47,802 nt of DNA from a virus, in the IMG/VR virus record IMGVR_UViG_3300015275_000001, positions 1 through 47,802 of that record; one strand, 5' to 3'. Numbering within the stretch: position 1 is the stretch's first letter; every line of letters starts with the position of its first letter. Shown in pieces: positions 12,227-47,802 of the stretch. The position numbers were made by a program, and so were the translations under genes. The notes beneath the pieces were generated by a model. It saw only the letters and a program-made list of their open reading frames with translations. It made no database searches and was not told the DNA's origin.

Positions 12227-12636
12227 CAGCAGGGCCACCCGCAAACCGGCTCGACGTAGCCAACCAGCATAGGCCCTCCCGTATTGCGGCGGAGCATGAC
12301 CGCAAACTCCTGACCATAGCTCGTCGCGTCCCACCCGCTCGAGAGCGATCGATTGGAAGCCGTCTCGCTGATCTGCACGTCCATGCTGGCGCTCTTGAAC
12401 TTCGTGACACCGGCTGGGATGCCCAACACAGCAAGATCGCTATCGTCCGAGATGCCCGGCGCCTTCGACAGCACCAGATGATGCGCCGCATAGGCTAGGC
12501 GGGCCGGATCAGCATCCGCGCCCCAGGCATCCGTCACGTATCTATCAGCGTCAGTCAGCCAATACTGAACACGATCGTCAGCCACGCCAGCGAATGCCGG
12601 GTAGCGCATCTTCAGGTCCGCGGGGGTGACGCTCAT
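12223..12636 (-). CDS. Head completion / connector protein (DUF4054-like)
   Basis: MSVTPADLKMRYPAFAGV.D..V..WL.DA resembles DUF4054 connector proteins. ATGA coupling at 12633-12636. Confidence 0.6.
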   Translation of the reverse strand: MSVTPADLKMRYPAFAGVADDRVQYWLTDADRYVTDAWGADADPARLAYAAHHLVLSKAPGISDDSDLAVLGIPAGVTKFKSASMDVQISETASNRSLSSGWDATSYGQEFAVMLRRNTGGPMLVGYVEPVCGWPCW

Positions 12637-14735
12637 ACCGGGATACTCGAGCCGCCATCTCGGGCGTAAATCTCGCTGATGGTGAGGTTGTCCGCGACGC
12701 CTGCCGCCACGTCAGCCGCCAGATAATCCATAAACTGCTGGAACCCGGCGGTCGTCATTCCGATGGCCGATGCGGTCGCGGCGATATCGTGGATGTAATA
12801 GATGATCGTTGCCTGGCGCAGTTTGGCCTTCTCGTACTGCGCGATTAGCTGGTTAACGGTGACCCCAGAGCCCATGCTGGTCGAGCACGCCGGAAGCGTC
12901 AGAGCTTGGTCTATGCCGAAGCGCGAATGGAAGTGGCCCTGAGACGGGCTGTAGAGCGTTGTGCGTCCGGTGAGGAAGCCCTGAGCCGCCAGCGCTGCCT
13001 GCATCTTGCCATTGTAGAACGCGCCGCGCTTGTCGATCAGGACAGCCGCCAGAGCCGCGCGTGTCGGCACGTTCTGGCTAACCTGATAGTGCGTGCTGTC
13101 CACGACAGCCGTGACCGTTGTACCGGTCGGGATAGCTGATCCTGCAAGCGTAAAGCCGATGTTCGCGCTATCGGTGGCAGGGACGGTGACGACATTGGAG
13201 CCGTCAGCCGTGCAACTGGCCAGATTGACCTTCGCCCCGAACGTGGCCCACGTCCCGTTGCTATAACAGCCGTGGTTCTTGCCGGGGTTGTCAAAACCGT
13301 TGTCTACCAACCACTGACGAACTCCTGCTGCTTCCGTCGCGGCGGTTGCGGGGTCTGAGCGGTTCGTGATCGGAGCGTCGTCGTTCGTGAAGTTGCAGGC
13401 AAGGTCCCAACCAGCCGCGCGCATTTGCCCCATCTGGGCCTTAGACAGGCGGTTGGCGTTCCCGACGTTCAGCGGCACGGTATAGCTGGTGCCACGCAGG
13501 CCGCGCGTCGTCATATACGGGAGCGCGATCGTTGCTGTCGTATCGAAGCAGTCATCAAACGACAGACACACGGTCGGGCGTCCGCCAGCGCGCGCCATGA
13601 GAGCATCATGACGGACCGTGGGCAACGAACGATACCGAGCCGATAGCGTGCCAGCCCCCGGCGTGTTCAGGCCCGAATGTTCCGACACATGGAAGGTATG
13701 CGGATGCCAGCCCAACGCCTGATCGGCGGGGTTGGGGTTGCTGTTGATGTTCTGAGTGTCGACGTCCTGAACCAAGCCGACGAACGATCCAGCGCGGCTG
13801 AACTGCGGATACGAGACCGGGTTTTGCTGCTCGGACTGCGGCTCCACGTAGGTCGCCAGATAGATAAGGCCAAGCGTCGAAGGGTCGATGCTAGTCGAGC
13901 CGTCAATCGTAAAGTTGGCGGTGCGCGTCGCCAGGACCGTGCCAGTTCCGGTACGATCAATCTTGAGCGAGCCCGAACCTTGCTTGGCGGACGGGTCGAT
14001 GGACAGCGTGACATTGGACGCCGTGTACGCGCTCAGCGTGTCAAAGCTGTCGAGCAGGATCGGCGCGGCATAGACAACCTGATACGCCACAGCATCAGTC
14101 AGAACGCCGGAGATATTGCCCTTGGCCACTAGGCGGAAACCAGCATCCCCGGCCGCTGCGATGTAGGTCGAAGCCGTCGCTCCGCTGATCGCCGTCTGGG
14201 TACGATCGCTGCTCAGCGCCTCGCGATACCACTGGATACCGGTCATCCCGGCGGGTGCGGTATAGGTCTGCCCGACCGAGCCGTCCTTGGTCGTGGTCAG
14301 CGCACCGAACGAACGGACCGCGGGCGCGCCGACCAGAACCTGCTGCGTGGAGCCAAGGTCGTCCTCGGCATACAGCCGATAGGTGATGGATCCATCCGGT
14401 TGTCGTTGCCCCGCGGCGCGGTACCGAACTAGCGTCCGGCCCGGCCCCATTAGCGCCAGCGCACTGGTCATCAGCTGATCGCGCGTAGTCGCGGTGATGT
14501 CGATCCGGCTGTCCCGGTAGCCCTGACCGACACCCGGCTCATATTCGCGCAGAGATACGGTCGAGACAGGGTAGGGGAGGCCACGCGACATCAACTGACC
14601 GTTAACCACTGAAAAGCCCGGAGATGCATCCCCCAGAACCTCCACCCGCCCGGTCGTCAGGCCCGAGATAGCCGCTTGGAAAGGGCGGCCCTGCACGCCC
14701 TGGGTGGTGGAGAGGGTGAGAGCATTGAGCGCCAT
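12633..14735 (-). CDS. Fibre-like structural protein with C-terminal polysaccharide deacetylase (CE4/NodB-like) domain (700 aa)
   Basis: RPTVCLSFDDCFD...(motif 1-like)...TIIYYIHDI (motif 5-like) at about aa 385-690. The N-terminal and central parts are beta-rich. The gene lies between the head genes and the connector genes. Confidence 0.6.
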   Translation of the reverse strand: MALNALTLSTTQGVQGRPFQAAISGLTTGRVEVLGDASPGFSVVNGQLMSRGLPYPVSTVSLREYEPGVGQGYRDSRIDITATTRDQLMTSALALMGPGRTLVRYRAAGQRQPDGSITYRLYAEDDLGSTQQVLVGAPAVRSFGALTTTKDGSVGQTYTAPAGMTGIQWYREALSSDRTQTAISGATASTYIAAAGDAGFRLVAKGNISGVLTDAVAYQVVYAAPILLDSFDTLSAYTASNVTLSIDPSAKQGSGSLKIDRTGTGTVLATRTANFTIDGSTSIDPSTLGLIYLATYVEPQSEQQNPVSYPQFSRAGSFVGLVQDVDTQNINSNPNPADQALGWHPHTFHVSEHSGLNTPGAGTLSARYRSLPTVRHDALMARAGGRPTVCLSFDDCFDTTATIALPYMTTRGLRGTSYTVPLNVGNANRLSKAQMGQMRAAGWDLACNFTNDDAPITNRSDPATAATEAAGVRQWLVDNGFDNPGKNHGCYSNGTWATFGAKVNLASCTADGSNVVTVPATDSANIGFTLAGSAIPTGTTVTAVVDSTHYQVSQNVPTRAALAAVLIDKRGAFYNGKMQAALAAQGFLTGRTTLYSPSQGHFHSRFGIDQALTLPACSTSMGSGVTVNQLIAQYEKAKLRQATIIYYIHDIAATASAIGMTTAGFQQFMDYLAADVAAGVADNLTISEIYARDGGSSIPV

Positions 14736-16398: not shown

Positions 16399-17409
16399 TT
16401 AAATGTTGTCGCGGTAGCTCATCGTCTTCGGACGATAGAGCTCGAACTGACCGACGTTCATCACGCCGTCGACACGCCAGGTCATGGACGAGGTGGGGAA
16501 CAGCGGCATGAACTCGAACATGCCCGGCAGGAAAAACTCCATGTTGTCGGGGTTCTTCTCGTAGGCGACGATGCGGCCGGTGCCACCAGCGCCAGCCGTC
16601 TCCAGTTCGCGGCTGGGTCGGATATCGAGCGGCTGCTTGGTAATCGCGGTATAGGCGTTGTTCTCGGTGATATACTTCAGGATCGACTGATCCGTGTTCG
16701 GCATCCGAGTGCGGTTGGCGATAAGGAACTTGCTGGTGGGGATCAGGAGCGAATTGGCGGTTGCCGTCTCACGGGTGTTCACGAACACGTCCGTCAGCGC
16801 AGCGTCCACGTCAGCCGACATCTGATCGGCGCTCGCGGTTGCCCAGTTGCCGGTCGGGGCGTTCGCGGTGGGCACGACCGTCTGGTTGATCATGCCAAGA
16901 AAGTTCTTCTCGCCAGTATCGCCGCGGATGACGCGATCGTAGATGAACTTCTCAGCCACCATGCGCGCGGCTGATGCTTTGCGCTCAGCGAGGTTCGAGC
17001 CGCCTTCGGTGACGCCAGGGTTCTGTGCGACCATGCGAGCGAAGCGCTCGACCTCACGGCGCGACAGCTCATAGCCGACGCCAGCGAGGTGGAACTGCGT
17101 CACGCCCTGGCTGAAGTTGATCGATGCGTTCGGAACGTCGAAGGCCTTGCCCCCGAGATATTCCGCCTTGCCCGCGACATCGCCGGAATAGACCAGCGTG
17201 CCGACGTCCCACATGTCGCCATCGGTGTTGACCGGAACCAGCCCGGCATAGTCGAAGCTGGGATACTTCTGACCGATGAACTTGTGCGTGCGGTACAGAG
17301 CGGGCTGCGCGAAGCCGACCGTCTGCTGGGCATCGTGAAGGTCGAGCGTCGGGGGCACGCCAAAGGAGCGGGCCGCGTCGCCAAGATGAATGATGTTCGG
17401 TGCGTACAT
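16399..17409 (-). CDS. Major capsid protein (336 aa, DUF2184-like, HK97 fold expected)
   Basis: Size and position after the decoration and scaffold genes. Co-occurs with a DUF1073-type portal and a DUF2213-type scaffold. Confidence 0.8.
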   Translation of the reverse strand: MYAPNIIHLGDAARSFGVPPTLDLHDAQQTVGFAQPALYRTHKFIGQKYPSFDYAGLVPVNTDGDMWDVGTLVYSGDVAGKAEYLGGKAFDVPNASINFSQGVTQFHLAGVGYELSRREVERFARMVAQNPGVTEGGSNLAERKASAARMVAEKFIYDRVIRGDTGEKNFLGMINQTVVPTANAPTGNWATASADQMSADVDAALTDVFVNTRETATANSLLIPTSKFLIANRTRMPNTDQSILKYITENNAYTAITKQPLDIRPSRELETAGAGGTGRIVAYEKNPDNMEFFLPGMFEFMPLFPTSSMTWRVDGVMNVGQFELYRPKTMSYRDNI

Positions 17410-17424: not shown

Positions 17425-17880
17425 TTACTGCTGCACGACGCGAAGACGAACAGGCGCGCCGCTCGAAACTGCGTCCATGAAGGTCGCAGGGATCGCCGTG
17501 TTGCCGCTCGACGTGGCGGTGAAGGCGCCCGCGCTGGTCACATAGGCCGCGGCGTCCTTCGTCGTATTGCTGCCCGCCAGCACCCAGATATCGCCCATAT
17601 CGAGCAGCGACATGGTGCCGTACTGCGGATGGACGTCCGCGGTGGCGGTGAGGCCGGGCACGATGCCGATATCGGCGATCACGATGCCTTTGAACTTGGT
17701 GCCGGGGGTCGCAGTGACCTGCTTGCCGACGCCGGTCGAGAAGACCGCCTTGCCGAAAGCGATACCGGCTGCATCAGCGCAAATGCCAGTCGGGCGCGAC
17801 TGCGTGTTGCCGTCTGCCAGCATGCCGGGGAAGCCCTGCGCATAACCGGTGAGATACGTGTCCTGAACGGTGATAGGCAT
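17425..17880 (-). CDS. Head decoration / cement protein (151 aa)
   Basis: Gly/Ala/Thr-rich beta protein immediately upstream of the capsid gene, as in Gp24-type cement proteins. Confidence 0.6.
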   Translation of the reverse strand: MPITVQDTYLTGYAQGFPGMLADGNTQSRPTGICADAAGIAFGKAVFSTGVGKQVTATPGTKFKGIVIADIGIVPGLTATADVHPQYGTMSLLDMGDIWVLAGSNTTKDAAAYVTSAGAFTATSSGNTAIPATFMDAVSSGAPVRLRVVQQ

Positions 17881-17892
17881 CTCTCTTCCCCC

Positions 17893-19026
17893 TTATGCCG
17901 CTTCGGTGTTGTGGAACGGTTTCTTCCAAGCCGACGACAGGTTCGCCTTCTGCTTGGCGCGATCGTTCAGATACTCGGTGTGCGCGTCGGTGACCTGCGC
18001 AGGCGAGCCCAGCGGCTGGATCTTCTGTTCCGCAACCTTCGCGTCCTTGGTCGCGACAGCGAAGGAGGCGGCGATTTGCGCGTCGTTCCAGCCTTCAGCA
18101 GCATCGCCCATGACCTTGGTCACCGCCGCCTTCATGATGGCGGCCTCGTCCATCGCATCCGTCACCTCGACGCCGATTGCCTTGGCCTTGCCGACGACCT
18201 GGGCATATGCCTTAGCGGCATCACGCAGTTGGGCCGGAGTGGGCTTCGCGTCTTCCAGCGCCTTCTTTTCAGTCTTGAGCGTCGCGATTTCCGTGTCGCG
18301 CGCCGCGATGGTGGCGGCATGCTCGCCAACCGTCTTGGTCGCAGCGTCACGCGCGGCGATAAGAGTCTGAACGGTGGCGATTGCCGTATCGGCGTTCGCC
18401 ATGTCGACGGTCAGCCCGTCGATAACCATGGTCTTCACGGGCTTCTCCGTCTTCAGGGTGTCGAAAAGGTTGGAGGGGAGGGCGTCACAAATGGCGCAGT
18501 CGGAGCCAGCGCGGCCCCGGTCGACCAGCGCGACATGGTTCCCGATGATAGAACCGGGCTTCTGGCGGGCCTGGCACTTGGTGCCGTCCGCCGCGGTAAA
18601 ATCACCCACTTCGACGTCGCAGGCGTAGCCGTTGGACAACTCGCGCTTGCCGCCGTTGACCTTGGCCACGGTGGTGGCGTCGGTCAGCATCAGGTCGAAG
18701 GTGAGGTATTCGCCATCACGCATCGCACCCATGATTGTCCCGCGCGCGTGGGTCCGCCAATTGTCAGCGGTGACGGGCTGGGAGGGGTGATCGTCGGTGA
18801 TCGGCTTGCCGATGAAACTGCGAACGGCGCGTTCGTCAAAGACCGCGTTCTCGTCACGCAGAACATTGACGACGGCCGTGTCTCGCAGCCCATGCGTATT
18901 GTCGGGGTCTATCTCGCGACCGGCATACTGATACACGCCGGTTCGGGCGGCTCGTGCTCGAACAGCCAAAGCACCGCCTTGCAGCGGGCGGGGGGCGTCG
19001 AGCGTCAGGGCATCCGAGAATAGCAC
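17893..19026 (-). CDS. Head scaffolding/maturation protein (DUF2213-like, 377 aa)
   Basis: The N-terminal part ...VYQYAGREI...VLRDENAVFDE..V.SF.GKPITDDHP... is DUF2213-like. The C-terminal part is an Ala/Lys/Asp-rich coiled coil. GTG start. Confidence 0.65.
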   Translation of the reverse strand: MLFSDALTLDAPRPLQGGALAVRARAARTGVYQYAGREIDPDNTHGLRDTAVVNVLRDENAVFDERAVRSFIGKPITDDHPSQPVTADNWRTHARGTIMGAMRDGEYLTFDLMLTDATTVAKVNGGKRELSNGYACDVEVGDFTAADGTKCQARQKPGSIIGNHVALVDRGRAGSDCAICDALPSNLFDTLKTEKPVKTMVIDGLTVDMANADTAIATVQTLIAARDAATKTVGEHAATIAARDTEIATLKTEKKALEDAKPTPAQLRDAAKAYAQVVGKAKAIGVEVTDAMDEAAIMKAAVTKVMGDAAEGWNDAQIAASFAVATKDAKVAEQKIQPLGSPAQVTDAHTEYLNDRAKQKANLSSAWKKPFHNTEAA

Positions 19027-19072: not shown

Positions 19073-19345
19073 TCAGAGATTGTCGATTGGCATCCCGTTT
19101 TGGTCGTATGCTATCCAGCCGGTTTCCGCATCAGTCACCGTCTCGATCACGATGCCGTTATAGACCAACTCGCTCCACATCGCGGCAGGATAGGCCAGCG
19201 ATCCGGCCATTTCTGGAGCAAGGTTGTCCGCGAACGGCTTGGCGGCTCGGATGCGGACGACCTTGCGCCCGTCTTGCGCCGCCCTCTCAGTCAGTCGGTC
19301 GATCTGCCACCTGATGGGCTGGTCGCCATGAATGCCGTCTGTCAT
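19073..19345 (-). CDS. Hypothetical protein (90 aa)
   Basis: ATGA-type coupling to the upstream ORF. Confidence 0.55.
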   Translation of the reverse strand: MTDGIHGDQPIRWQIDRLTERAAQDGRKVVRIRAAKPFADNLAPEMAGSLAYPAAMWSELVYNGIVIETVTDAETGWIAYDQNGMPIDNL

Positions 19346-19599
19346 TTACCTTCCTCCAGCAGCGCGTCGATCATGGCGCGCCACGCACGCGTTATCTCAA
19401 CATCCGGAGTGTCGGCATCTTCTCGGCTCAGATTAAGGTCGCGATAAGCGGCCTCCAGCATCCCTTCACTCGGCTCGCGGATAGCCACGATGACGGCGCG
19501 GGCTACCGGCAGCACCTCCTGCCAAGCCAGAGGACTTTCACCACCATCAAGCGGGTAGTTGTCGACTAGCGCCCTCGCGGCTCGCTCCAGCGGGGTCAT
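19342..19599 (-). CDS. Hypothetical protein (85 aa), member of a 3-copy small-protein family
   Basis: ...VIVAIREPSEGMLEAA...TRAWRAMIDALLEE is shared with 19596..19904 and 45041..45385. Confidence 0.55.
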   Translation of the reverse strand: MTPLERAARALVDNYPLDGGESPLAWQEVLPVARAVIVAIREPSEGMLEAAYRDLNLSREDADTPDVEITRAWRAMIDALLEEGK

Positions 19600-19904
19600 G
19601 CTACCGGTTCCATCGCAGCCGCTTTAATCATGGCTTGATACCCACGTTGCGCGTCCCATGCCGCGACTTTTGGGTCGAAGTCCGTTGGTCCGCTTAATTC
19701 CCGCAAAAGGGCTTGTCGCATATCTGGCGTCGGATCGCGCATTGCTATGATCGCAGCACGGAGCATCTTGTCGAGAGCGCCGGGGGCAACTGTGCCTCTC
19801 TCGTCACCTCTCAGCAGCAATTCTTGCACGTCGGTGGTGATACCATGCTCAGCCAGCGCCACTAGCGCGGCGGTCTTTGCTCGGGTTATGATGCTATCAG
19901 CCAT
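19596..19904 (-). CDS. Hypothetical protein (102 aa), same small-protein family
   Basis: ...AIIAMRDPTPDMRQAL...YQAMIKAAA. A GAGGTG RBS precedes the ATG at 19904. Confidence 0.55.
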   Translation of the reverse strand: MADSIITRAKTAALVALAEHGITTDVQELLLRGDERGTVAPGALDKMLRAAIIAMRDPTPDMRQALLRELSGPTDFDPKVAAWDAQRGYQAMIKAAAMEPVA

Positions 19905-20122: not shown

Positions 20123-20971
20123 CTAATCGAAGATCAAAACGGCTTGTTCGCGGCAGCCGCAGAAGGGAGGGCGTCCTGGCCTATCATCTGAGGCCACCTC
20201 CTGCGCGACGGTCTTGCCCTCCACAACGCGCCCGATCATGTCGGGATTGCTGGTGTAGAGGTTCCCGTCGCGTTCCTCGTGTCGGACGCGGGGATGGAGC
20301 TTGCGACTATGCTTCCACTCGTAGACCGATAGCCCGGCCTGAGTGCGGCGCTCAGCGTTCAAGGCGGCGGTTAGCTTGCTAAGCTGGTCGCTGGCGATCC
20401 TAGTCGACCGATCGCGCGCCAAGCCAGTGGCTTCCCGGATCTTAGCCGCCACTTCGCGCGCCGGGGTGCGATTGCGCAGGCCGTCGAATACTGCAGTACC
20501 GATCCGCTGGCGGGCCTGCGCGCTGACATCCTTAACCAGCGAGACGTTCCACTCGATCGCGGCCTCTAGCGGCTGCTGAACGTCATTCACCGACAGCATC
20601 GTGGTCAGGTCGACGTCAGACGCAGCAAGTGCGGCGCCGATCCACTTTCCTCGCTGCCAACGCTCTACCCGCAGAGCCCAATCACCCATCGCTGCGCGCA
20701 ACGACAGGACCAGCCGCAGAAATTCGTTCTCAGCCTGGTCGAGCTGCCCGTTGATGTCGCTGGCAGCGTCCGTCGTCAGCGCAGACAGGCTGCGCTGGTA
20801 CTCCGCTAGGATGGCGTCAGTGCGGCGCGTCCAGATGGCTACGGCTGGTGCGTAGACCCGCTGATAGAGGTTCGTCGCGAACGTGGCAGGGGGCTTGATG
20901 TCGCGGAACGTCACCGACTTGCGGCGTCGGTTTCGGCCGTTTCTGGCGAGGGCGGCTAGGTCGAAGCGCAC
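20123..20971 (-). CDS. Head morphogenesis protein (SPP1 gp7 / Mu F-like, 282 aa)
   Basis: ...VYEWKHSRKLHPRVRHEERDGNLY... matches the conserved C-terminal motif of the family. Follows the portal gene. GTG start. Confidence 0.75.
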   Translation of the reverse strand: MRFDLAALARNGRNRRRKSVTFRDIKPPATFATNLYQRVYAPAVAIWTRRTDAILAEYQRSLSALTTDAASDINGQLDQAENEFLRLVLSLRAAMGDWALRVERWQRGKWIGAALAASDVDLTTMLSVNDVQQPLEAAIEWNVSLVKDVSAQARQRIGTAVFDGLRNRTPAREVAAKIREATGLARDRSTRIASDQLSKLTAALNAERRTQAGLSVYEWKHSRKLHPRVRHEERDGNLYTSNPDMIGRVVEGKTVAQEVASDDRPGRPPFCGCREQAVLIFD

Positions 20972-20974
20972 GGA

Positions 20975-21154
20975 TCACCTCGACGACGGCGCGACAGTCA
21001 CCTGCACTTTGACGAAGCTCATTGCGATCGCTGTGGCCCGGTCAACGCTGATCATACGCAGCGCGACCAAGGGATACAGCATCCGGATGACCACCGCAGC
21101 CACCTTGGCCTTTACGGACAGGTCCAAGGTTATGGCGCCCTCAGTCTTGGCCAT
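20975..21154 (-). CDS. Small hypothetical protein (59 aa)
   Basis: ATG at 21154 has a GAGGAG RBS and overlaps the portal stop by 14 nt. Confidence 0.4.
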   Translation of the reverse strand: MAKTEGAITLDLSVKAKVAAVVIRMLYPLVALRMISVDRATAIAMSFVKVQVTVAPSSR

Positions 21155-23033
21155 TGCTGATCTCCTCAAAGATTTCCGGCCCCAGCTCGATAGGGCCGCG
21201 ATACGGCTCGACATTGGTCAGGTCGACTGGATCGCCGGTCAGGGAGATATGCGGCTGATAGTCGGGTAAGTCCCACGACGCGCCAGCTTCACGCATCTCG
21301 CGGTTCCGCCAGCCGAGATCCGACGACGCGAACATGAGGACGGCAGTGCGATCCCCCAGCGGCTCGACCACGCGCGGCCCACCCGCCGTGATCAACATAT
21401 CGCCGCTACCCTTGCCGCTATAGTCCACCCACGACGACCCCATCTTGATCCAGTCGACCGGGGTCGTGCTGTAGGCGATGGTGACGTGCAGATCGTCTTG
21501 CAGATCGGGCAATCCCTGCGATTTAGCCCACGCTTTCAGATCGCCCACGTTCTTGACCTTGCGGCTGACGTAGAGCGAGCGCGGCGCGGCATCATTCGCG
21601 GCACGACGCCGACCGGCGCTTCCATCACCGGTCGGATCGTCGGCAGATGCAGGATCACCTCCTTCCACTCCGTTGCCGGATTGCGTGAGGGCAGATGGGT
21701 CGGAACCGTCGTCTTCGGGAATGAGGCCGAAGCGCTCTTGTTCGGGAATTTCCGCCAAAGCCGCGTCGATGCCGACCAGCCAGCTTTCGCGATCGGAAAG
21801 GGTGTTCTGCACCGCCTTGGTCAGTGCCTGATCTGGGACAGTGCCGGTGCCTTGCAGCTTCTCGACGGCCTGAGTGAAGACGTAGAAAGTGTCCGCGTCT
21901 TCCTTCTCGGTCGGAGCCCACAGCGGCGCCCACTTCCACGACACCGTGCCCGGATCGGTGATGCCAGCGGACCGCAGCAGGACGGGGTCGATCTGGTCGA
22001 GGCACGGCCGCGTCTCAAGCTGCTGGCCAGCCGATACCGTCTTTGCCCAGTTCTGATCGTCATAGGCGCCGGTCGCATTCATGCCAGCCGGTGATCGGCC
22101 GGTGAGGCGGGTGAACGGGATGTCCGCAACGGTCGCCACCATCTGGAGGAAAGCGTCCATCATGGCCGGGATGCCGTTCCATGACACCTGATAGTCATCG
22201 ATTTTCTCGGCAGGAAGATCGCCCCCATTGCCAAGGTCATAGACGCTGGCGTTCAGAGAGTTTTCACCCTCCGCCAGCAGCCCGACGCGCGCGGCAATCT
22301 TGGAGTACCCATCCGGCGTGGCGACACGATCGGAGAGGTTGCCGATGCCGACGCGGGTCAGCTTGGCCTTCTTGATGAGCGCCGCGAACCATGCCTGCGC
22401 ATTGTCGCTGTTCTCCGCCTCTCGCAGCACGGTCAGCAGGCGGCTATCGCCCCAGAACGCTTCCTCATCGGTAAGCAGCGAGCCGACCGGCAGGGCGGGC
22501 CCACGGAAGCACACGACGCGGCTGGGGTGGATTGGGACCGATCGTCCGTCCGTATCCATGAGGAAGCGGGTCGGCTCTCCATAACGGGGGTCGGTAATCT
22601 CGCGGATCCAGCCATCGCCCCGGATTTGCCACCGGCTGACGACGTTGACCGCGACCAGCCCGCCTGCGTTGATCGTCGCTGGGTCGAGGGGCTGCGAATG
22701 GTCCCCGGCCGTGATGAGGATGAGCGCACCGCCCCCGATGCCGCGAAGGACTTCCGCCTGGCGCACCTTGGCGATCAGTCCGAGCCGCTTTTCCTCAGCC
22801 TCGATCTTGCCCGCCAGATCGCCATCCGCCTGCCAGTCGCGCCATTCACGGACGCGATCATTGGCGGGGATCGCGATGACCTTACGCAGCAGGCCACTCG
22901 ACTGGTAGGCGGCGATGGCCAGCTGATAATTAAAGACCCCGTAGGTCCCGAACGTGGATCGGTTGCCGAAACGGGAGAGTGGCGAGGCTACCGCTGCGAT
23001 CGCACGGGTCAAGCTGTCGGTGATCCACGCCAT
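21141..23033 (-). CDS. Portal protein (DUF1073-like) fused to a C-terminal 2H-phosphoesterase (Acb1/LigT-like) domain (630 aa)
   Basis: Directly downstream of the large terminase. Aa 1-440 are portal-like and aa 440-485 form an acidic/Gly linker. Aa 486-630 carry two H-x-T/S motifs 79 aa apart (DLHVTIAYS and QPHISLTGD). Confidence 0.8.
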   Translation of the reverse strand: MAWITDSLTRAIAAVASPLSRFGNRSTFGTYGVFNYQLAIAAYQSSGLLRKVIAIPANDRVREWRDWQADGDLAGKIEAEEKRLGLIAKVRQAEVLRGIGGGALILITAGDHSQPLDPATINAGGLVAVNVVSRWQIRGDGWIREITDPRYGEPTRFLMDTDGRSVPIHPSRVVCFRGPALPVGSLLTDEEAFWGDSRLLTVLREAENSDNAQAWFAALIKKAKLTRVGIGNLSDRVATPDGYSKIAARVGLLAEGENSLNASVYDLGNGGDLPAEKIDDYQVSWNGIPAMMDAFLQMVATVADIPFTRLTGRSPAGMNATGAYDDQNWAKTVSAGQQLETRPCLDQIDPVLLRSAGITDPGTVSWKWAPLWAPTEKEDADTFYVFTQAVEKLQGTGTVPDQALTKAVQNTLSDRESWLVGIDAALAEIPEQERFGLIPEDDGSDPSALTQSGNGVEGGDPASADDPTGDGSAGRRRAANDAAPRSLYVSRKVKNVGDLKAWAKSQGLPDLQDDLHVTIAYSTTPVDWIKMGSSWVDYSGKGSGDMLITAGGPRVVEPLGDRTAVLMFASSDLGWRNREMREAGASWDLPDYQPHISLTGDPVDLTNVEPYRGPIELGPEIFEEISNGQD

Positions 23034-23066: not shown

Positions 23067-23076
23067 TTACCGCCGT
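23067..23076 (-). repeat. Late-operon junction element, copy A (minus strand CTGTAACGGCGGTAACT)
   Basis: ttaccgccgt overlaps the terminase TAA (23076-23078), 42 nt before the portal ATG. Confidence 0.75.
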
Positions 23077-24581
23077 TACAGTAGGGCGTCGAGGTTGTAG
23101 CCCCCACCACTTCCCAACATATCGGCGATCGCGTCCATCAACGGGTCGACCTGATCGTCCCAGCCGGTGCCAAGGCCATCAAACATCTGAAGCTCGGCAC
23201 GCAGCGCCACCTTGCATTCGTGATTCTCGGGCAGGTGAACCATCCCTGTCGCGATCCAGGGCGCGGCGTCTAGGCCCCGCGTGTACTTGTCCTTGTCGCG
23301 GGGGATGCCAATCACTGGGATTTGCTGGTTGCGCCGCAATGACTGGATCAGCCCCGTGCCAGACGCCTTGTCCTCGACCTTAAAACCGCGTGGCGTCAGC
23401 GCCTTATGCTTCTCCCAGAATGCCTTGGCTGCCTTCTCAAGCTCCGGGGCCTCCCATTTGCCTCGCACTTGGTCGATCAGGTATATCCCGCTGGCAGCCT
23501 TCCCCCATAGCTGGATCACGCTGAAGTCGTTACGCTCCCCTGTTTTCTGCGCGGTATCGGCGTAGATCGAATAATACTCGATCGCGGGCAGATCTTTCCA
23601 CCACTTGAAACCATCCATGTTGAACAGCGCGCCTTCTATCGACACCGGCCGTTGCATGTACTGGCTGGCGAAGGTGTAGGCGTCCGCCTTGAGCACCTCG
23701 ATCTCCGTCGCGTCATGCTTCTCGCGCCAGAGCGGGCCATTCGGGAGGTTGTGCTGAATGGGCAGGCCGTGGGTCCACTCGACTGGGTAGGGCTCGCTGT
23801 TGTCGATCAAGACCGGCAGGTTGAGGTGGTGCCACTTCTCACCAGTGCCGCCCGTCAGCAGGTGCCCCACGAAGTCGTCCGAGTGCAGCCGCTGCATGAT
23901 GACGATGATAGGCACGTCATCATGCGCCAGGCGCGACCGAAAAGTGTTGGTAGCACGCTGGTTGACCGTCTTGCGCTTGGTCGGGCTGAACGCGTCGTCC
24001 GGCTTCAGCGGGTCGTCAATGACCAGCGCCCCGGTGAACATCGTGCGGTCCATGTACCCGGCGCGGAAGCCCGTGATAGGGCCACCAGCAGCCTTTGCCA
24101 GCATACCACCACCCGCAGTCGTCTTCCACCTGTCCTTGGCCTTGCTGTCGACCCTGACAGCCACCTCCTGCACCGCTTGATAGCCGTCGAGCGCCACCAA
24201 CCCCAGCACCTTGTCGCTATTCTCCCGCGCTAGATCGTCGGAAAACGTCGCATGGATGAACCGAGACTTCGGGTTGCGGTGGAAGCCCTTGGCGATGAAA
24301 TTGACGACCGCCGCCTCGGTCTTGGTATAGCCAGGGGGCAGGGTGATGATTAGGCGGGTAATCTCGCCATTCAGCACACGGTCCAGCGTGTCACCGATCG
24401 CGCGATGATGCGGCCCCTCAATGAACTCCATCCCCTCGCGCTCGGGGAAGTACCAGCGCGCGAAGTCCAGCAGCTTGCCTTCCGGCTTTAGCGCCTCAGC
24501 CTTGCGCTTGGCGACGACAGCCGTCAGCAGCGCTACGCGGGCAGCGCGGTCAGAGTCCGAGAGTGGCAGGGTCGATGCCAA
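23076..24581 (-). CDS. terL: Terminase large subunit (501 aa)
   Basis: Typical phage TerL layout with an N-terminal ATPase and a C-terminal nuclease (...VIDDP...; ...DDQVDPLMDAI...). Position between TerS and portal. The start is uncertain: TTG at 24581, and the next ATG removes 50 aa. Confidence 0.85.
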   Translation of the reverse strand: MASTLPLSDSDRAARVALLTAVVAKRKAEALKPEGKLLDFARWYFPEREGMEFIEGPHHRAIGDTLDRVLNGEITRLIITLPPGYTKTEAAVVNFIAKGFHRNPKSRFIHATFSDDLARENSDKVLGLVALDGYQAVQEVAVRVDSKAKDRWKTTAGGGMLAKAAGGPITGFRAGYMDRTMFTGALVIDDPLKPDDAFSPTKRKTVNQRATNTFRSRLAHDDVPIIVIMQRLHSDDFVGHLLTGGTGEKWHHLNLPVLIDNSEPYPVEWTHGLPIQHNLPNGPLWREKHDATEIEVLKADAYTFASQYMQRPVSIEGALFNMDGFKWWKDLPAIEYYSIYADTAQKTGERNDFSVIQLWGKAASGIYLIDQVRGKWEAPELEKAAKAFWEKHKALTPRGFKVEDKASGTGLIQSLRRNQQIPVIGIPRDKDKYTRGLDAAPWIATGMVHLPENHECKVALRAELQMFDGLGTGWDDQVDPLMDAIADMLGSGGGYNLDALL

Positions 24582-40250: not shown

Positions 40251-40426
40251 CCGCACCAGCACGCATACGGCAGGCCGATGTCGCCCGCGTCCTCAAAGGT
40301 ATGGAAGCCGCTGGCATCCGTGTCGGAGCGGTCAAGATCGATGCGCTAGGCAATGTGCTAATCCAGCGAGAGGGCGGCGCACCTGCCACGAATGAAAACC
40401 CCTGGGATAGCTTGTTGAAGCAGTGA
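40247..40426 (+). CDS. Small protein (59 aa; below ORF-track cutoff) coupled to the integrase; excision/directionality factor candidate
   Basis: Hand translation gives MTAPARIRQADVARVLKGMEAAGIRVGAVKIDALGNVLIQREGGAPATNENPWDSLLKQ. ATGA coupling upstream. Its TGA overlaps the integrase GTG. Confidence 0.45.
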   Translation: MTAPARIRQADVARVLKGMEAAGIRVGAVKIDALGNVLIQREGGAPATNENPWDSLLKQ

Positions 40427-41538
40427 GAAAAAAGCGATCATACCTCCCCGACTATGTGACGGTATTCAAGGACCGTCATGGTAAGCAGCGCTATCGGTTC
40501 CGCCGTGTGGGCTACCCAAGCCGTTATTTACCGGGAGAGCTTGGCTCTGAGGAATTCCTGCGCGCGTACGCGGAAGCGAAGGCCGCAGCGCCTAAGCATG
40601 GCATACTGCAGCGTGAGGATTATCCGGCTGGCTCGATCGGTGAGCTGACGACACGGTATATGGCCGTGCCCGCTCGCTTGGGGCCGACACTGACAACGCA
40701 AGCCAAGATCCGGGCAATTATCTGCAAATTCCGTGAGGGACGCGAGACATGGCCCGTCGCAGGCGTCCGTTTCGAGCATATCGACACGATCATTGCTGAG
40801 AAGCGGATTAAAAAACAGGTTGGCAAGCGCATCGAAGGCGGCGTCGAGGCTGCACGCCGGTTGCGCAAGGAGCTTATCCGACTATTCGACTTCGCCAAGA
40901 AGATCCGGATGATTAGCGACAATCCGGCGCGCGACGCCGATCGGGTCAAGACCTCGAAAGAGGAGCGATCAGAGGGCTTCTACACTTGGACTGAGACTGA
41001 CATTGAGCAGTATCGGCGATATCATCATCTGGGCACCAAGCCGCGTCTAGCAATGGAGTTGATGCTCTGGACCGGTCAGCGCCGGATTGACGCCATTCAC
41101 CTCGGGCGGAGCAACATCGTCAACGGCTATATCCACTTCACGCAGACTAAGACAGACAAGGTACTTGGCATCCCACTGGCGCCCCAGCTGCTGGAAGCTA
41201 TCACGGCAATGCCGCCGCACAACCATGAGTATTTTTTGCTGAGCGGCTGGAACCGGCCCTTTACCAATGCCGGGTTCGGCAACTGGTTTCGGGAACAGTG
41301 TGACGCGGCCGGGTTGCCTAAGTGCACTGCCCACGGCCTGCGCAAAGCCACGATGCGGCGCATGGCTGAGCTTGGTGTGACGAATCAACACATGAAGGCG
41401 GTTTCGGGCCATAGCAAGGACGATGAGGTCGCGCGCTACACAGCCGCCGCGAATCAGCGTCGCATGGCGGACGCCGCTATCCGGGCTTTGTCAGAGTGGG
41501 AGGCTCAAACGTCTAACCCACAAATCACAAAAGTCTAA
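40423..41538 (+). CDS. int: Tyrosine integrase (371 aa)
   Basis: C-terminal catalytic pattern ...TAHGLRKATMRRMAE...VSGHSKDDEVARYT (R...HxxR...Y). N-terminal arm-binding-type region. Confidence 0.9.
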   Translation: MRKKRSYLPDYVTVFKDRHGKQRYRFRRVGYPSRYLPGELGSEEFLRAYAEAKAAAPKHGILQREDYPAGSIGELTTRYMAVPARLGPTLTTQAKIRAIICKFREGRETWPVAGVRFEHIDTIIAEKRIKKQVGKRIEGGVEAARRLRKELIRLFDFAKKIRMISDNPARDADRVKTSKEERSEGFYTWTETDIEQYRRYHHLGTKPRLAMELMLWTGQRRIDAIHLGRSNIVNGYIHFTQTKTDKVLGIPLAPQLLEAITAMPPHNHEYFLLSGWNRPFTNAGFGNWFREQCDAAGLPKCTAHGLRKATMRRMAELGVTNQHMKAVSGHSKDDEVARYTAAANQRRMADAAIRALSEWEAQTSNPQITKV

Positions 41539-41696
41539 CCAATCCCTTAAATGCCTGAAAACAGGAGGAAGAATTGACTTGTATGGAGGCGCGACCGGGT
41601 GCACAACAAAGTCCTGGAATCAGCGCGTTAGACATAGCTGGCAGCCCTTTTTGCGGTGATAGCCTGCCTCGTGTCCCAGCACTGGTGTCTAACCAA
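41511..41696. promoter_or_regulatory. Candidate attP region with four GTCTAAC repeats
   Basis: GTCTAACC at 41511, 41533 and 41687. Inverted GTTAGAC at 41627. A 170-nt non-coding gap lies right after int. Confidence 0.4.
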
Positions 41697-41708
41697 AACG
41701 AGGTCGCC

Positions 41709-42137
41709 ATGCCGGTGATTTATGAAGAAAAAGACCCGAAGCGAATTGAGGGTTGGGCAGGCCATATCCGGCGGGAACGCGGACCGAACGCATCGTATGG
41801 GGTCGTCTACTTTGTCGGACCGGCAAGCGGCCCCATCAAGATCGGCTTTACCCGCGACTTCTCATCCCGAATGGCAAAGCTGCAATCCATGTGCCCATTC
41901 CCCTTGGTGGTCTGGGCCGCGATCGAAGGTACGACGCTATGCGAGGCGGATCTGCACAAGGCGCACGCTGAGGATCGCCTGCATGGTGAGTGGTTCTCGC
42001 TGACACCGGCAATCGCGCACCTCATCAAGAGCCGCCGCGAACTGACTGGCCTGCGTGAACTCCAGTCGTATGCCGAGCCGATCCGCAAGGCGATCCGGCT
42101 TCTGACTACTCCTGAGCGCATGAGGAAAGTGGCATGA
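41709..42137 (+). CDS. T5orf172 / GIY-YIG-like domain protein (142 aa)
   Basis: YGVVYFVGPASGPIKIGFTRDFSSRMAKLQ...EADLHKAHAEDRLHGEWFSL matches the T5orf172/MUG113 pattern. ATG has a GAGG RBS. Confidence 0.7.
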   Translation: MPVIYEEKDPKRIEGWAGHIRRERGPNASYGVVYFVGPASGPIKIGFTRDFSSRMAKLQSMCPFPLVVWAAIEGTTLCEADLHKAHAEDRLHGEWFSLTPAIAHLIKSRRELTGLRELQSYAEPIRKAIRLLTTPERMRKVA

Positions 42138-45952: not shown

Positions 45953-46140
45953 TTCGGTTGCTCCGTGTCGGTGGGCTTGTCGGTTGGCGGGTTCTTCGGG
46001 CGGAAGGTGCCCAGCACGCCGATAAGGCCGGTCATGATGGCGAGGTCTGCAGGCTTGCCGGTGAAGGCTCCCAGCGCGGACAGGATCACCAGCGCCACGA
46101 TGATGGCGAGGAAGGCGATCAGGTTCTCACGGTCGGTCAT
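45949..46140 (-). CDS. Small two-TM membrane protein (63 aa), spanin/holin-accessory candidate
   Basis: ATGA overlap with the endolysin stop. LIAFLAIIVALVILSALGAF and LAIMTGLIGVLG. Confidence 0.55.
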   Translation of the reverse strand: MTDRENLIAFLAIIVALVILSALGAFTGKPADLAIMTGLIGVLGTFRPKNPPTDKPTDTEQPK

Positions 46141-46706
46141 GCTTTCCCCCCATACATCGCAGCCTCAGCGGCCCGGCGCCGGGTCAGGCCAGGCATAACC
46201 TTGCCAGCCGCCTTGTTCCATTTGGCAAATTCGGCCTGCGCCCCGGCATAGTCGCCAGCGTTGTGTTTCTTGAGCAACGTCGATCTGGTCAGATTACCGA
46301 GCCCCACATTAAACGAGAACGACACCAGCGCGTCGAACTGTGCCTGTGTGGTCTCCGAAGCCAACTTGTTCACACCAGCCTCAAATCGCGCCAGATCATC
46401 GCTCAGCAGTTTGTCGGAATGCTCTCGGGTGATCGTCAGGCCCTTGTGCACGTCGGGCCCGGTGTGGCCCACGCCGATGGTCCAGGGATCGCCGTTCGTG
46501 GCCGGATCGGGATAGGCGGTCAGTCGCTCACCCTCGAAATCGCGGATCAGGTTGCGCCCTGCGGTCGAGGTCTTGCGAGCATCCATTCTCTGCATCCCAA
46601 AGCTGTCTGCCAGTGCGTCGATGACCTGCACATGGCTGGGGAGGAAACGGCGTTCAGGCGCGAACTCGCGGATCGCGTCGAACAGGGCTGAGCGGCGGTC
46701 GGTCAT
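46137..46706 (-). CDS. Endolysin, GH24 lysozyme (189 aa)
   Basis: LIRDFEGERLTAYPDPATNGDPWTIGVGHT...FDALVSFSFNVG is the T4/lambda-type lysozyme E-D-T signature. The internal ATG at 46706 gives an ATGA overlap. Confidence 0.85.
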   Translation of the reverse strand: MTDRRSALFDAIREFAPERRFLPSHVQVIDALADSFGMQRMDARKTSTAGRNLIRDFEGERLTAYPDPATNGDPWTIGVGHTGPDVHKGLTITREHSDKLLSDDLARFEAGVNKLASETTQAQFDALVSFSFNVGLGNLTRSTLLKKHNAGDYAGAQAEFAKWNKAAGKVMPGLTRRRAAEAAMYGGKA

Positions 46707-47023
46707 GGCTTGCCCCTGCTTTTGAGATAGTCGCGCGACTGCCGGTACTGCTCGGTATTGCGGCGCCAGTGACGCAGGCGACGATGACCGTAACCCAGCA
46801 GGAACAGCGCAATCCCGTAGGTCATGATTGAGGTAGCCCATCCGTCGAACGGGCTGTCATGACCTTCCCAGATGATGCCGATCGTGAGAAATGACCCCGA
46901 CCCCATGAGCCCGAGGCCGATCCGCTCCGACTCGTTCAGCTCGTCGCGCAGGACGGTCACAATGATTGTGGCGACGACCGTGACGATCAGCCGTCCCAGC
47001 GAGTTGAAAATGTCCCAGATCAT
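46703..47023 (-). CDS. Membrane protein (106 aa), holin/antiholin candidate
   Basis: The internal ATG at 47023 gives an ATGA overlap. Three hydrophobic segments and a basic C-terminus. Confidence 0.55.
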   Translation of the reverse strand: MIWDIFNSLGRLIVTVVATIIVTVLRDELNESERIGLGLMGSGSFLTIGIIWEGHDSPFDGWATSIMTYGIALFLLGYGHRRLRHWRRNTEQYRQSRDYLKSRGKP

Positions 47024-47334: not shown

Positions 47335-47802
47335 GCCTCTTTCTCCAGAAAGGCAGCGGCTTTGGGGCCCAAGCCCACATTACGTAGGCGAAAGCGCCGC
47401 CACAGATTAAGCAGACGATCGGCACAGCCATTTCCTCCAAGCGTCGATAATGCGAGCAGTGCCAGCAGCTGTATGACGAGGGAGGCGTCCAGCATCGGCT
47501 TGTAATCCAGATATTCGAGGCCATTAGTCCACGCGACCGACAGCATGGTCAGCTGCGCAAACCACAGACCCCAGATCAGCGGTGCCCACCACATGAGGCG
47601 GCAGCGCAAGCCGACCACGATCATGCAGAGCAGGTCAGCCAGCGCCCACATGTCCTCGTGGCGGACCGGGATGGTCCAACCCATTGCCTCGCCTGAGCCA
47701 TAGACGAGGAAGGCCGGGGACAGCGGCGCGTAAATCCAGAACGAGGCGAACAGCAGCCAGTTAATGCCGACCGCCGTCGCCGCGAACCGCAATTCCCCGC
47801 GC
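47331..47802 (-). CDS. Polytopic membrane protein, 3' part (full gene is 47331-47802 joined to 124-194 on the circular map; 180 aa)
   Basis: Five to six hydrophobic segments. The ORF-track start at 47792 is only a TTG. The true ATG lies across the junction at 194. Confidence 0.6.
   Translation of the reverse strand, partial: RGELRFAATAVGINWLLFASFWIYAPLSPAFLVYGSGEAMGWTIPVRHEDMWALADLLCMIVVGLRCRLMWWAPLIWGLWFAQLTMLSVAWTNGLEYLDYKPMLDASLVIQLLALLALSTLGGNGCADRLLNLWRRFRLRNVGLGPKAAAFLEKEA
47680..47802. repeat. Terminal direct repeat, copy 2 (identical to 1-123)
   Basis: Same 123-nt string as the window start. Confidence 0.95.

Follow-up and report, generated by a model that had tools for sequence, protein, structure and literature searches.

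A virus genome sequence of 47,802 nucleotides (positions 1 to 47,802 of IMG/VR record IMGVR_UViG_3300015275_000001, analysed here over its whole length and referred to as the window) encodes on its minus strand a 630-amino-acid (aa) phage portal protein that ends in an Acb1-like domain. Acb1 is a phage enzyme of the 2H phosphoesterase superfamily that degrades the signals of CBASS (cyclic oligonucleotide-based antiphage signalling systems). Profile searches and a predicted structure strongly support the C-terminal module as a member of the Acb1 family, beyond a generic 2H enzyme. The best explanation overall, and one that we hold to be fairly probable, is that of a functional portal carrying a catalytically competent Acb1-type domain tethered at its inner end. 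The window protein is one more example of an annotated and already interpreted architecture, in this case in an uncultivated temperate sphingomonad phage. Three points are added here: the fusion partners of the domain comprise three portal families and a scaffold; the deposited model of the homologous portal of phage Pam3 covers 442 of its 621 residues; and the window copy of the domain is a form that has no C-terminal lid.

The portal-Acb1 open reading frame (ORF) is intact, with an ATG start and a stop codon at 21141-21143. Its parts, some of them placed with the help of the predicted local distance difference test (pLDDT), are as follows.

21141..23033, minus strand: portal protein fused to an Acb1-like domain, complete 630-aa ORF (ORF list and translation; PF06381 and PF23474 on one polypeptide)
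21702..23033, minus strand: portal body, aa 1-444 (PF06381, phrog_146, AlphaFold and Foldseek)
21594..21701, minus strand: predicted flexible linker, aa 445-480, rich in acidic residues and Gly, with the clade-conserved RRRAAND at its end (pLDDT <50 and composition)
21144..21593, minus strand: predicted Acb1-family 2H phosphoesterase module, aa 481-630 (PF23474, phmmer, AlphaFold, Foldseek and hhalign)
21570..21572, minus strand: Tyr488, equivalent of the base-stacking Tyr12 of Acb1 (LYV strand aligned with GLYV of FBB1)
21480..21488, minus strand: predicted catalytic motif 1, H516-V-T518, in DLHVTIAYS (aligned with HTT of FBB1 Acb1)
21243..21251, minus strand: predicted catalytic motif 2, H595-I-S597, in QPHISLTGD (aligned with HIT of FBB1 Acb1)
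21144..21167, minus strand: short C-terminal tail EEISNGQD, without the Trp-bearing lid (alignment with FBB1 Acb1 and Pam3)

The match to PF06381 (Phage_portal_3) extends over aa 40-392 (21858-22916, E=4.1e-90 in the Pfam scan), and a PHROG profile search matched the window portal to the portal family phrog_146 (E=8.5e-95), a profile which itself reaches over the Acb1 domain. AlphaFold, run on the whole protein with an alignment of 97 sequences, gave a model that was confident over approximately aa 35-434 and showed a compact, well-folded unit at aa 485-625. Between them, the pLDDT of aa 445-480 was <50, as would suit a flexible linker, and the 46 residues of aa 440-485 include 10 Asp/Glu and 8 Gly. 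The best structural match of this model in Foldseek was the Pam3 portal 8hds_A (E=7e-23), followed by the portals of E217, T1, Pa193 and XM1. The initial annotation, made from the nucleotide sequence alone, had described a 630-aa ORF composed of a portal body, an acidic/Gly-rich linker and a 145-aa module (aa 486-630, 21144-21578), and this layout is borne out by Pfam, by composition and by AlphaFold. It had also singled out two H-x-T/S motifs 79 residues apart; these proved to be the only such motifs in the C-terminal third of the protein, with the codon of His516 at 21486-21488 and that of His595 at 21249-21251.

The ORF is continuous through both domains, and public records from both JGI and ENA contain the identical protein. 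This identity, together with more than 100 listed homologues (52-90% identity) that have both domains in one ORF, shows that the fusion is not a sequencing artefact. Nor was an internal start for a free Acb1 recognised: within aa 400-500 there are four in-frame GTG/TTG codons, none of which has a Shine-Dalgarno-like sequence upstream.

Several independent comparisons place the C-terminal module. PF23474, the Acb1 profile of Pfam, matches aa 486-626 (21156-21578) and scored 107.4 bits (E=6.6e-31) on the module alone and 103.3 bits in the full protein, well above its cut-off of 27 bits, while LigT_PEase gave 11.9 bits on the window protein and stayed under its cut-off of 23.3 bits. PF23474 gives 196.7 bits for FBB1 Acb1, which is experimentally characterised, and can therefore be taken to represent that enzyme. 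Among the sequences of the Protein Data Bank (PDB), phmmer recovered the crystallised Acb1 7t26 (E=2e-8, the two His motifs being aligned) and the Pam3 portal's C-terminus (E=1e-26); tblastn reached the T4-type 57B genes directly from the domain, and an hhalign comparison of the domain-family profile with FBB1 Acb1 returned a probability of 99.2%. The domain was also modelled by itself with AlphaFold (pLDDT 92.6; predicted template modelling score, pTM, 0.86), and the model was compared with the PDB by Foldseek. The first match was 7t26 (E=4.7e-8, template modelling (TM) scores 0.70/0.74) and the second 7t27, and next came the phage phosphodiesterase 9q2y, E. coli LigT and further 2H enzymes. 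The best matches among predicted viral structures were UniProt entries named 'Anti-CBASS protein Acb1' (TM at most 0.85). No NCBIfam model matches the Acb1-like domain. The 2H/Acb1-like assignment put forward in the initial annotation is thus upheld by PF23474, by phmmer to 7t26, by tblastn to 57B and by the Foldseek matches to 7t26 and 7t27, and the structure and profile searches that had been suggested for it place the domain inside the 2H fold, nearest to solved Acb1.

The residues on which catalysis would depend are retained. Conservation was assessed in 147 copies of the domain drawn from 50%-identity cluster representatives, in which H516 is kept in all 147, T518 in 145, and H595 and Y488 in 146 each. 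Near-invariance of a catalytic tetrad in 147 diverged copies argues for selection for catalysis. The ligand contacts known for Acb1 comprise the base-stacking aromatics Y12, W74, F107 and W147 and the adenine-contacting Glu E141 (PMC9117128). The Glu pair E623-E624 of the window domain is aligned with the EE of FBB1 by hhalign, and the equivalents of W74 and F107 sit in poorly aligned loops. From its family membership, the domain would be expected to cleave 3'-5' cyclic di- and trinucleotide signals of the CBASS type, in a metal-independent acid-base reaction carried out by the His-Thr/His-Ser tetrad via a 2',3'-cyclic phosphate intermediate. By analogy with characterised Acb1, we regard such an enzymatic anti-signal activity as likely.

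The fusion is widespread. A search with the full-length protein yielded, among the matches listed, more than 100 proteins of about 600-650 aa that contain PF06381 and PF23474 and are 52-90% identical to the query, several of which are named 'anti-CBASS protein Acb1 family protein' by NCBI or 'Anti-CBASS protein Acb1' by UniRef. The nearest proteins to portal-Acb1 come from Sphingomonas, Novosphingobium and Sphingobium genomes. Cultured phages account for 32 records in which 80% or more of the query is covered, and the carriers include Pam3, phiPSA1-like phages of Pseudomonas, RHEph04-06-like phages of Rhizobium and phages of Synechococcus. A HMMER scan of 1.84 billion cluster representatives returned 1,262 proteins at E<=1e-10; in the best 146 of these, 96 have at least 350 residues ahead of the domain and 105 match the portal body of the window protein. 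Free-standing Acb1 genes were considered and discarded, as a search with the domain alone had given only proteins of 95-254 aa, all of which proved to be fragments cut off by a contig end, to come from a decayed locus or to belong to a portal interrupted by an in-frame stop. With these short homologues explained, the full-length search indicates that fusion is the norm. The portal with a stop (L002:4768-6588) is an otherwise continuous portal-Acb1 ORF split by one in-frame stop in the portal crown (PLWQPTS*ERSEN); the stop may stem from a sequencing error or a nonsense mutation, or it may be a codon that is read through. One further match, P0261 (3377 aa, matched in 20 stretches), lacks any HxT/S motif; this repetitive protein resembles an adhesin and was rejected as a false positive of summed weak matches.

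The initial annotation had implied that the architecture might be new, and this was not sustained. A database check found the fusion already catalogued, in annotations based on Pfam as well as in the names given by NCBI and UniRef, and the idea of packaging and injection was published in 2022. In that work, Iyer et al. (Viruses, PMC9503650) described 2H domains fused to portal and MuF head proteins and proposed that they are packaged in the head and injected against oligonucleotide immune signalling, with parallel statements for ADP-ribosyltransferases and Nudix domains. Portals go unmentioned in Hobbs et al. 2022, and in several papers where Acb1 and portals both occur the passages have nothing to do with each other. 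We found no literature that names DUF1073 together with Acb1, and none on the phosphodiesterase structures of Burkholderia phage BCSR5.

Relatives of the domain occur in a range of other architectures. The Acb1 domain stands at the C-terminus of three portal families, PF06381 and, as Pfam scans of the outliers showed, PF04860 (P0225, P0257 and P0268) and the Mu-type PF06074 (P0179 and P0283), and also at the N-terminus of a DUF2213 scaffold in P0287 and in P0307, the latter with a Nudix domain ahead. All of these partners, portals and scaffold alike, are located within the head. In phage Pa193, the DUF2213 protein occupies the inner side of the five-fold vertices of the mature capsid (PMC11456595). 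In some relatives a second enzyme follows portal-Acb1, either an ADP-ribosyltransferase (PF03496/PF01129) in P0132 (locus L007:5001-7415), P0240 and P0282, or a Zeta toxin in P0286, and such chains read in sequence as multi-effector proteins. Several extended relatives carry a (D/N)PSQPRDxxG...GGQW-like motif after the Acb1 domain, which may mark module boundaries, and in P0256 a ChaB domain lies ahead of the Acb1 domain. Close relatives without the enzyme are known as well. Four portals of about 480 aa (P0062, P0065, P0159 and P0165), 60-78% identical to the window portal, end just past RRRAAND, which points to a clean module boundary and to clean gain or loss of the module. At one such locus (L006:5001-7323), a portal of 481 aa (76% identity) has no Acb1 domain, and a separate, unrelated 240-aa ORF without a Pfam match is placed between the portal and the MuF-like gene. 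This arrangement suggests a variable accessory slot between the two genes.

The position of the domain in the particle can be approached through Pam3, whose portal gp3 forms a dodecameric ring with its parts running from barrel through crown, wing and stem to clip from the inside outward (PMC9942802). A C-terminal module that follows the barrel would, in this order, face the capsid interior. In the mechanism that we propose, the disordered acidic linker of about 40 residues would serve as a tether between the Acb1 domain and the portal's inner (barrel) end. The architecture implies that the domain would be made late and in a fixed 1:1 ratio with the portal, so that up to twelve copies per procapsid would face the interior and the portal C-terminus would serve as a cargo arm for counter-defence enzymes. 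From the same architecture, incorporation into the head interior seems to us probable, if by no means certain. The last and least certain step would be that packaged copies are freed by proteolysis, leave the head with the DNA and pre-empt signalling in the next host; this release and injection we put forward only tentatively. The suggestion of the initial annotation, that every virion or procapsid would bring twelve copies which might be active from the earliest stage of infection, is plausible. A similarly speculative generalisation is that the portal C-terminus acts as a general delivery arm which disarms cyclic-oligonucleotide signalling before phage genes are expressed. Release and injection would best explain why the domain has been fused repeatedly to internal head proteins and chained with toxin-like enzymes, and there is a precedent for virion-borne counter-defence in the ejectosome protein Gp15 of vibriophage ICP3, which is carried in the virion and counteracts CBASS (bioRxiv 10.1101/2025.07.23.666291).

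Several points weigh against this scheme. While covalently attached to the portal, the domain has no way of entering the next cell; it would first have to be cut free. No conserved cleavage motif was found at the junction across the fusion contexts, beyond PR-x-LYV of the domain's own first strand, and no prohead protease was recognisable in the head module by Pfam and PHROG scans, the PHROG label of the DUF2213 protein being a conflicting one. No capsid-targeting peptide was identified in portal-Acb1. The sequence deposited for Pam3 8hds has 621 residues including the Acb1 domain, of which 442 are modelled according to Foldseek, and the structure paper (PMC9942802) makes no mention of the domain. 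In the Pam3 portal the domain may be too flexible to be seen, may have been lost in the twelve-fold averaging, or may have been removed. The literature yielded no experimental test of a portal-fused Acb1, either biochemical or in virions. Accession 8hds was absent from the Foldseek matches of the domain model despite about 50% identity in the domain. As a separate observation, the portal gp19 of Pa193 (PDB 9b41) was deposited with 765 aa and modelled over residues 94-528, with its long C-terminal region unseen.

The same observations bear on the possibility that the enzyme acts only in the producing cell. There, the fusion would couple its synthesis to that of the late head genes, whose products help to trigger CBASS; free portal and open procapsids would form a cytoplasmic signal sink, and the copies that end up in virions would be passengers, never delivered. 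The failure to find a release mechanism (no recognised protease, no shared cleavage motif) is as this explanation would predict, as is the lack of ordered density for the domain in the Pam3 virion, and a report under the title 'Convergent mutations in phage virion assembly proteins enable evasion of Type I CBASS immunity' fits, as far as its title goes, a late, head-linked trigger. However, a covalent fusion is not needed for mere co-expression. Action in the producing cell also leaves unexplained why the domain was joined repeatedly to capsid-internal proteins, in three portal families and a scaffold, and why it was chained with an ADP-ribosyltransferase or a Zeta toxin, in the manner of packaged enzymes like Alt of T4. 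We consider confinement to the producing cell a possible but minority explanation, and retain as the preferred one a portal whose tethered Acb1-type domain lies inside the head.

A second question is raised by the C-terminus of the domain. In the Acb1 of FBB1 and T4, the last eight residues (145-152) form a Trp-bearing lid that closes over 3'3'-cyclic GMP-AMP (3'3'-cGAMP; PMC9117128). The window protein stops eight residues past GPEIF, in EEISNGQD, with no aromatic residue in this stretch, whereas FBB1 Acb1 ends in EELDLEWSDKD and the Pam3 portal in EEGDWREKVKTD. A D-W motif aligned with the FBB1 lid is kept by the Pam3 portal and by many fused copies (DLEW in FBB1, GDW in Pam3). In the homologues collected, a Trp follows GPExF at a distance of at most 20 residues in 138 cases, and 72 proteins come to an end inside 12 residues and lack it. 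All of the closest sphingomonad relatives examined have short tails in which the lid Trp is missing, and no remnant of the lid was found downstream of the window stop in any of the three frames. To judge from these comparisons, the lid-less form is a stable variant with its catalytic residues intact. The absence of the lid had been missed in the initial annotation. It adds to the points that count against the preferred explanation, because substrate affinity or range may differ in the window copy; the sphingomonad-clade form may have an opened pocket and accept a broader or different range of substrates than T4 Acb1.

Pursued further, this would make the domain a 2H enzyme with a non-canonical substrate, bound in a pocket left open by the missing lid; 2',3'-cyclic phosphate RNA ends, 2'-5' oligoadenylate-like molecules and the larger cyclic oligoadenylates of type III CRISPR are the candidates. 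The pocket of Acb1 limits its substrates to di- and trinucleotides, with the lid closing over the ligand (PMC9117128), and loss of the lid Trp in the window copy and its closest clade is compatible with a change in this respect. Some homologues show weak matches to LigT_PEase and 2_5_RNA_ligase2, and PHROG 755 names the domain family 'RNA ligase'. On the other side, the domain scores 103 bits as Acb1 and only 11.9 bits as LigT_PEase (cut-off 23.3), its nearest structures are those of Acb1 and not LigT, and the base-stacking Tyr is retained together with the EE pair near the adenine-contacting Glu. Moreover, the lid Trp is kept in about half of the related fused domains, including that of Pam3, so the family looks like canonical Acb1. 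A different substrate thus appears improbable, and cleavage of CBASS-type cyclic nucleotides remains the favoured activity. That the domain is a non-catalytic structural appendage serving assembly or DNA retention, or that the fusion arose by misassembly or a frameshift, is effectively excluded: close relatives that lack the domain do show it to be dispensable for portal function, and the metagenomic relative L002 has its in-frame stop, but the catalytic tetrad is essentially invariant in 147 diverged copies, the stop of L002 lies inside the portal crown and not between the domains, and the ORF is continuous in more than 100 listed sequences, in cultured phages (Pam3, phiPSA1, RHEph04-06 and Synechococcus phages) and in a PDB entry.

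If virion carriage and release are true, CBASS signalling could be neutralised before phage gene expression, models of the timing of this arms race would change, and portals would gain a second role as carriers of counter-defence enzymes. In the meantime, the NCBI name 'anti-CBASS protein Acb1 family protein', applied to proteins of about 600 aa, hides their identity as portals, and published portal structures such as that of Pam3 silently omit a 150-residue enzyme. Interest continues to attach to the hypothesis of delivery, to the form without a lid and to the portal arms with several effectors that occur in relatives.

The genome around the gene is that of a temperate phage. Positions 1-123 of the window are repeated exactly and directly at 47680-47802; a terminal repeat of 123 bp is the signature of a circular assembly, here of about 47.7 kb, and the window is probably a complete phage genome. 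Its genes include those for an integrase, a lysozyme, a primase, a helicase and a YqaJ-type exonuclease, from which the phage is taken to be temperate. The tyrosine integrase and the phage lysozyme are included among the ORFs at 40423-41538 (plus strand), 41574-42137 (plus strand) and 46137-46841 (minus strand). PADLOC weakly matched the ORF just past the integrase to PDC-S57, a candidate defence family (E=3e-5), and found nothing convincing on ten other ORFs of the window. In the tail region, two large ORFs on the minus strand, 12633-14735 (700 aa) and 624-2531 (635 aa), have no Pfam, PHROG or PADLOC match.

The head module lies entirely on the minus strand and runs from the small (TerS) and large (TerL) terminase subunits through portal-Acb1, a MuF-like gene, three small ORFs, the DUF2213 scaffold and the cement protein to the major capsid protein, the same gene order as in cyanophage Pam3; the MuF-like gene is syntenic with the Pam3 minor capsid gene. 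A megablast search of the module found no cultured phage close at the DNA level. The assigned neighbours of portal-Acb1 are listed below.

23076..24581, minus strand: terminase large subunit, directly upstream of the portal gene (phrog_38, E=6.8e-105)
20123..20971, minus strand: MuF-like minor head protein, directly downstream of the portal gene (PF04233, 31.5 bits; phrog_324, head morphogenesis)
17893..19026, minus strand: DUF2213 (Pa193 gp24-like) putative internal scaffold (PF09979, E=2.6e-52)
17425-17880, minus strand: cement protein
16399..17409, minus strand: major capsid protein, closing the head module (phrog_264, E=1.6e-59; phrog_563 as a further match in the capsid and cement pair)

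Labels for the DUF2213 protein conflict, PHROGs giving 'head maturation protease' (phrog_530 and others) and Pfam, the Pam3 record and the Pa193 study giving scaffold; the protein has no sequence relative in the PDB. The three small ORFs between the MuF-like and scaffold genes (19073-19904, minus strand) encode 90, 85 and 102 aa. Those at 19073-19345 and 19342-19599 have no PHROG match and that at 19596-19904 has no Pfam match. They may be accessory (moron-type) genes.

Compared with known systems, the window domain is closest in kind to Acb1 itself (T4 57B; FBB1 Acb1, 7t26/7t27), with which it shares PF23474, the 2H fold, the HxT/HxS tetrad and the base-stacking Tyr at about 30% identity to FBB1. 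Acb1 is a free-standing enzyme of 152 aa in T4-like lytic phages, whereas the window copy makes up the C-terminal module of a portal of 630 aa encoded by a temperate phage; the former has the Trp-bearing lid at residues 145-152 and the latter does not. The closest known counterpart of the whole protein is gp3 of Pseudanabaena phage Pam3 (8hds), a portal of 621 aa with the same PF06381 and PF23474, 34% identical overall and about 50% identical in the enzyme domain. The head modules of the two phages are syntenic over TerS, TerL, portal, MuF-like protein, scaffold, cement and capsid, and the two portals differ in that Pam3 keeps the lid Trp.

Packaged and injected effectors form a second group for comparison. 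The ADP-ribosyltransferase Alt of T4 and the polymorphic toxins and polyvalent proteins fused to MuF belong here, and in them, as in the covalent portal fusion of the window, an enzyme is attached or targeted to the head interior. In some relatives of the window portal, the Acb1 domain is followed directly by an ADP-ribosyltransferase of the Alt/VIP2 type or by a Zeta toxin. Alt of T4 has a capsid-targeting sequence and is itself cut by the prohead protease; unlike Alt, the window protein has no identified targeting peptide, cleavage site or protease. The portal- and MuF-fused 2H domains of Iyer, Burroughs, Anantharaman and Aravind (PMC9503650) are exactly the class to which the window protein belongs, described there in a survey-level computational statement with no per-family residue analysis, structure or experimental test. 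ICP3 Gp15, the virion-borne CBASS antagonist, is unrelated to Acb1 in sequence and fold and inhibits the effector CapV stoichiometrically with no degradation of the signal, whereas the portal-borne domain of the window would act as an enzyme on the signal itself.

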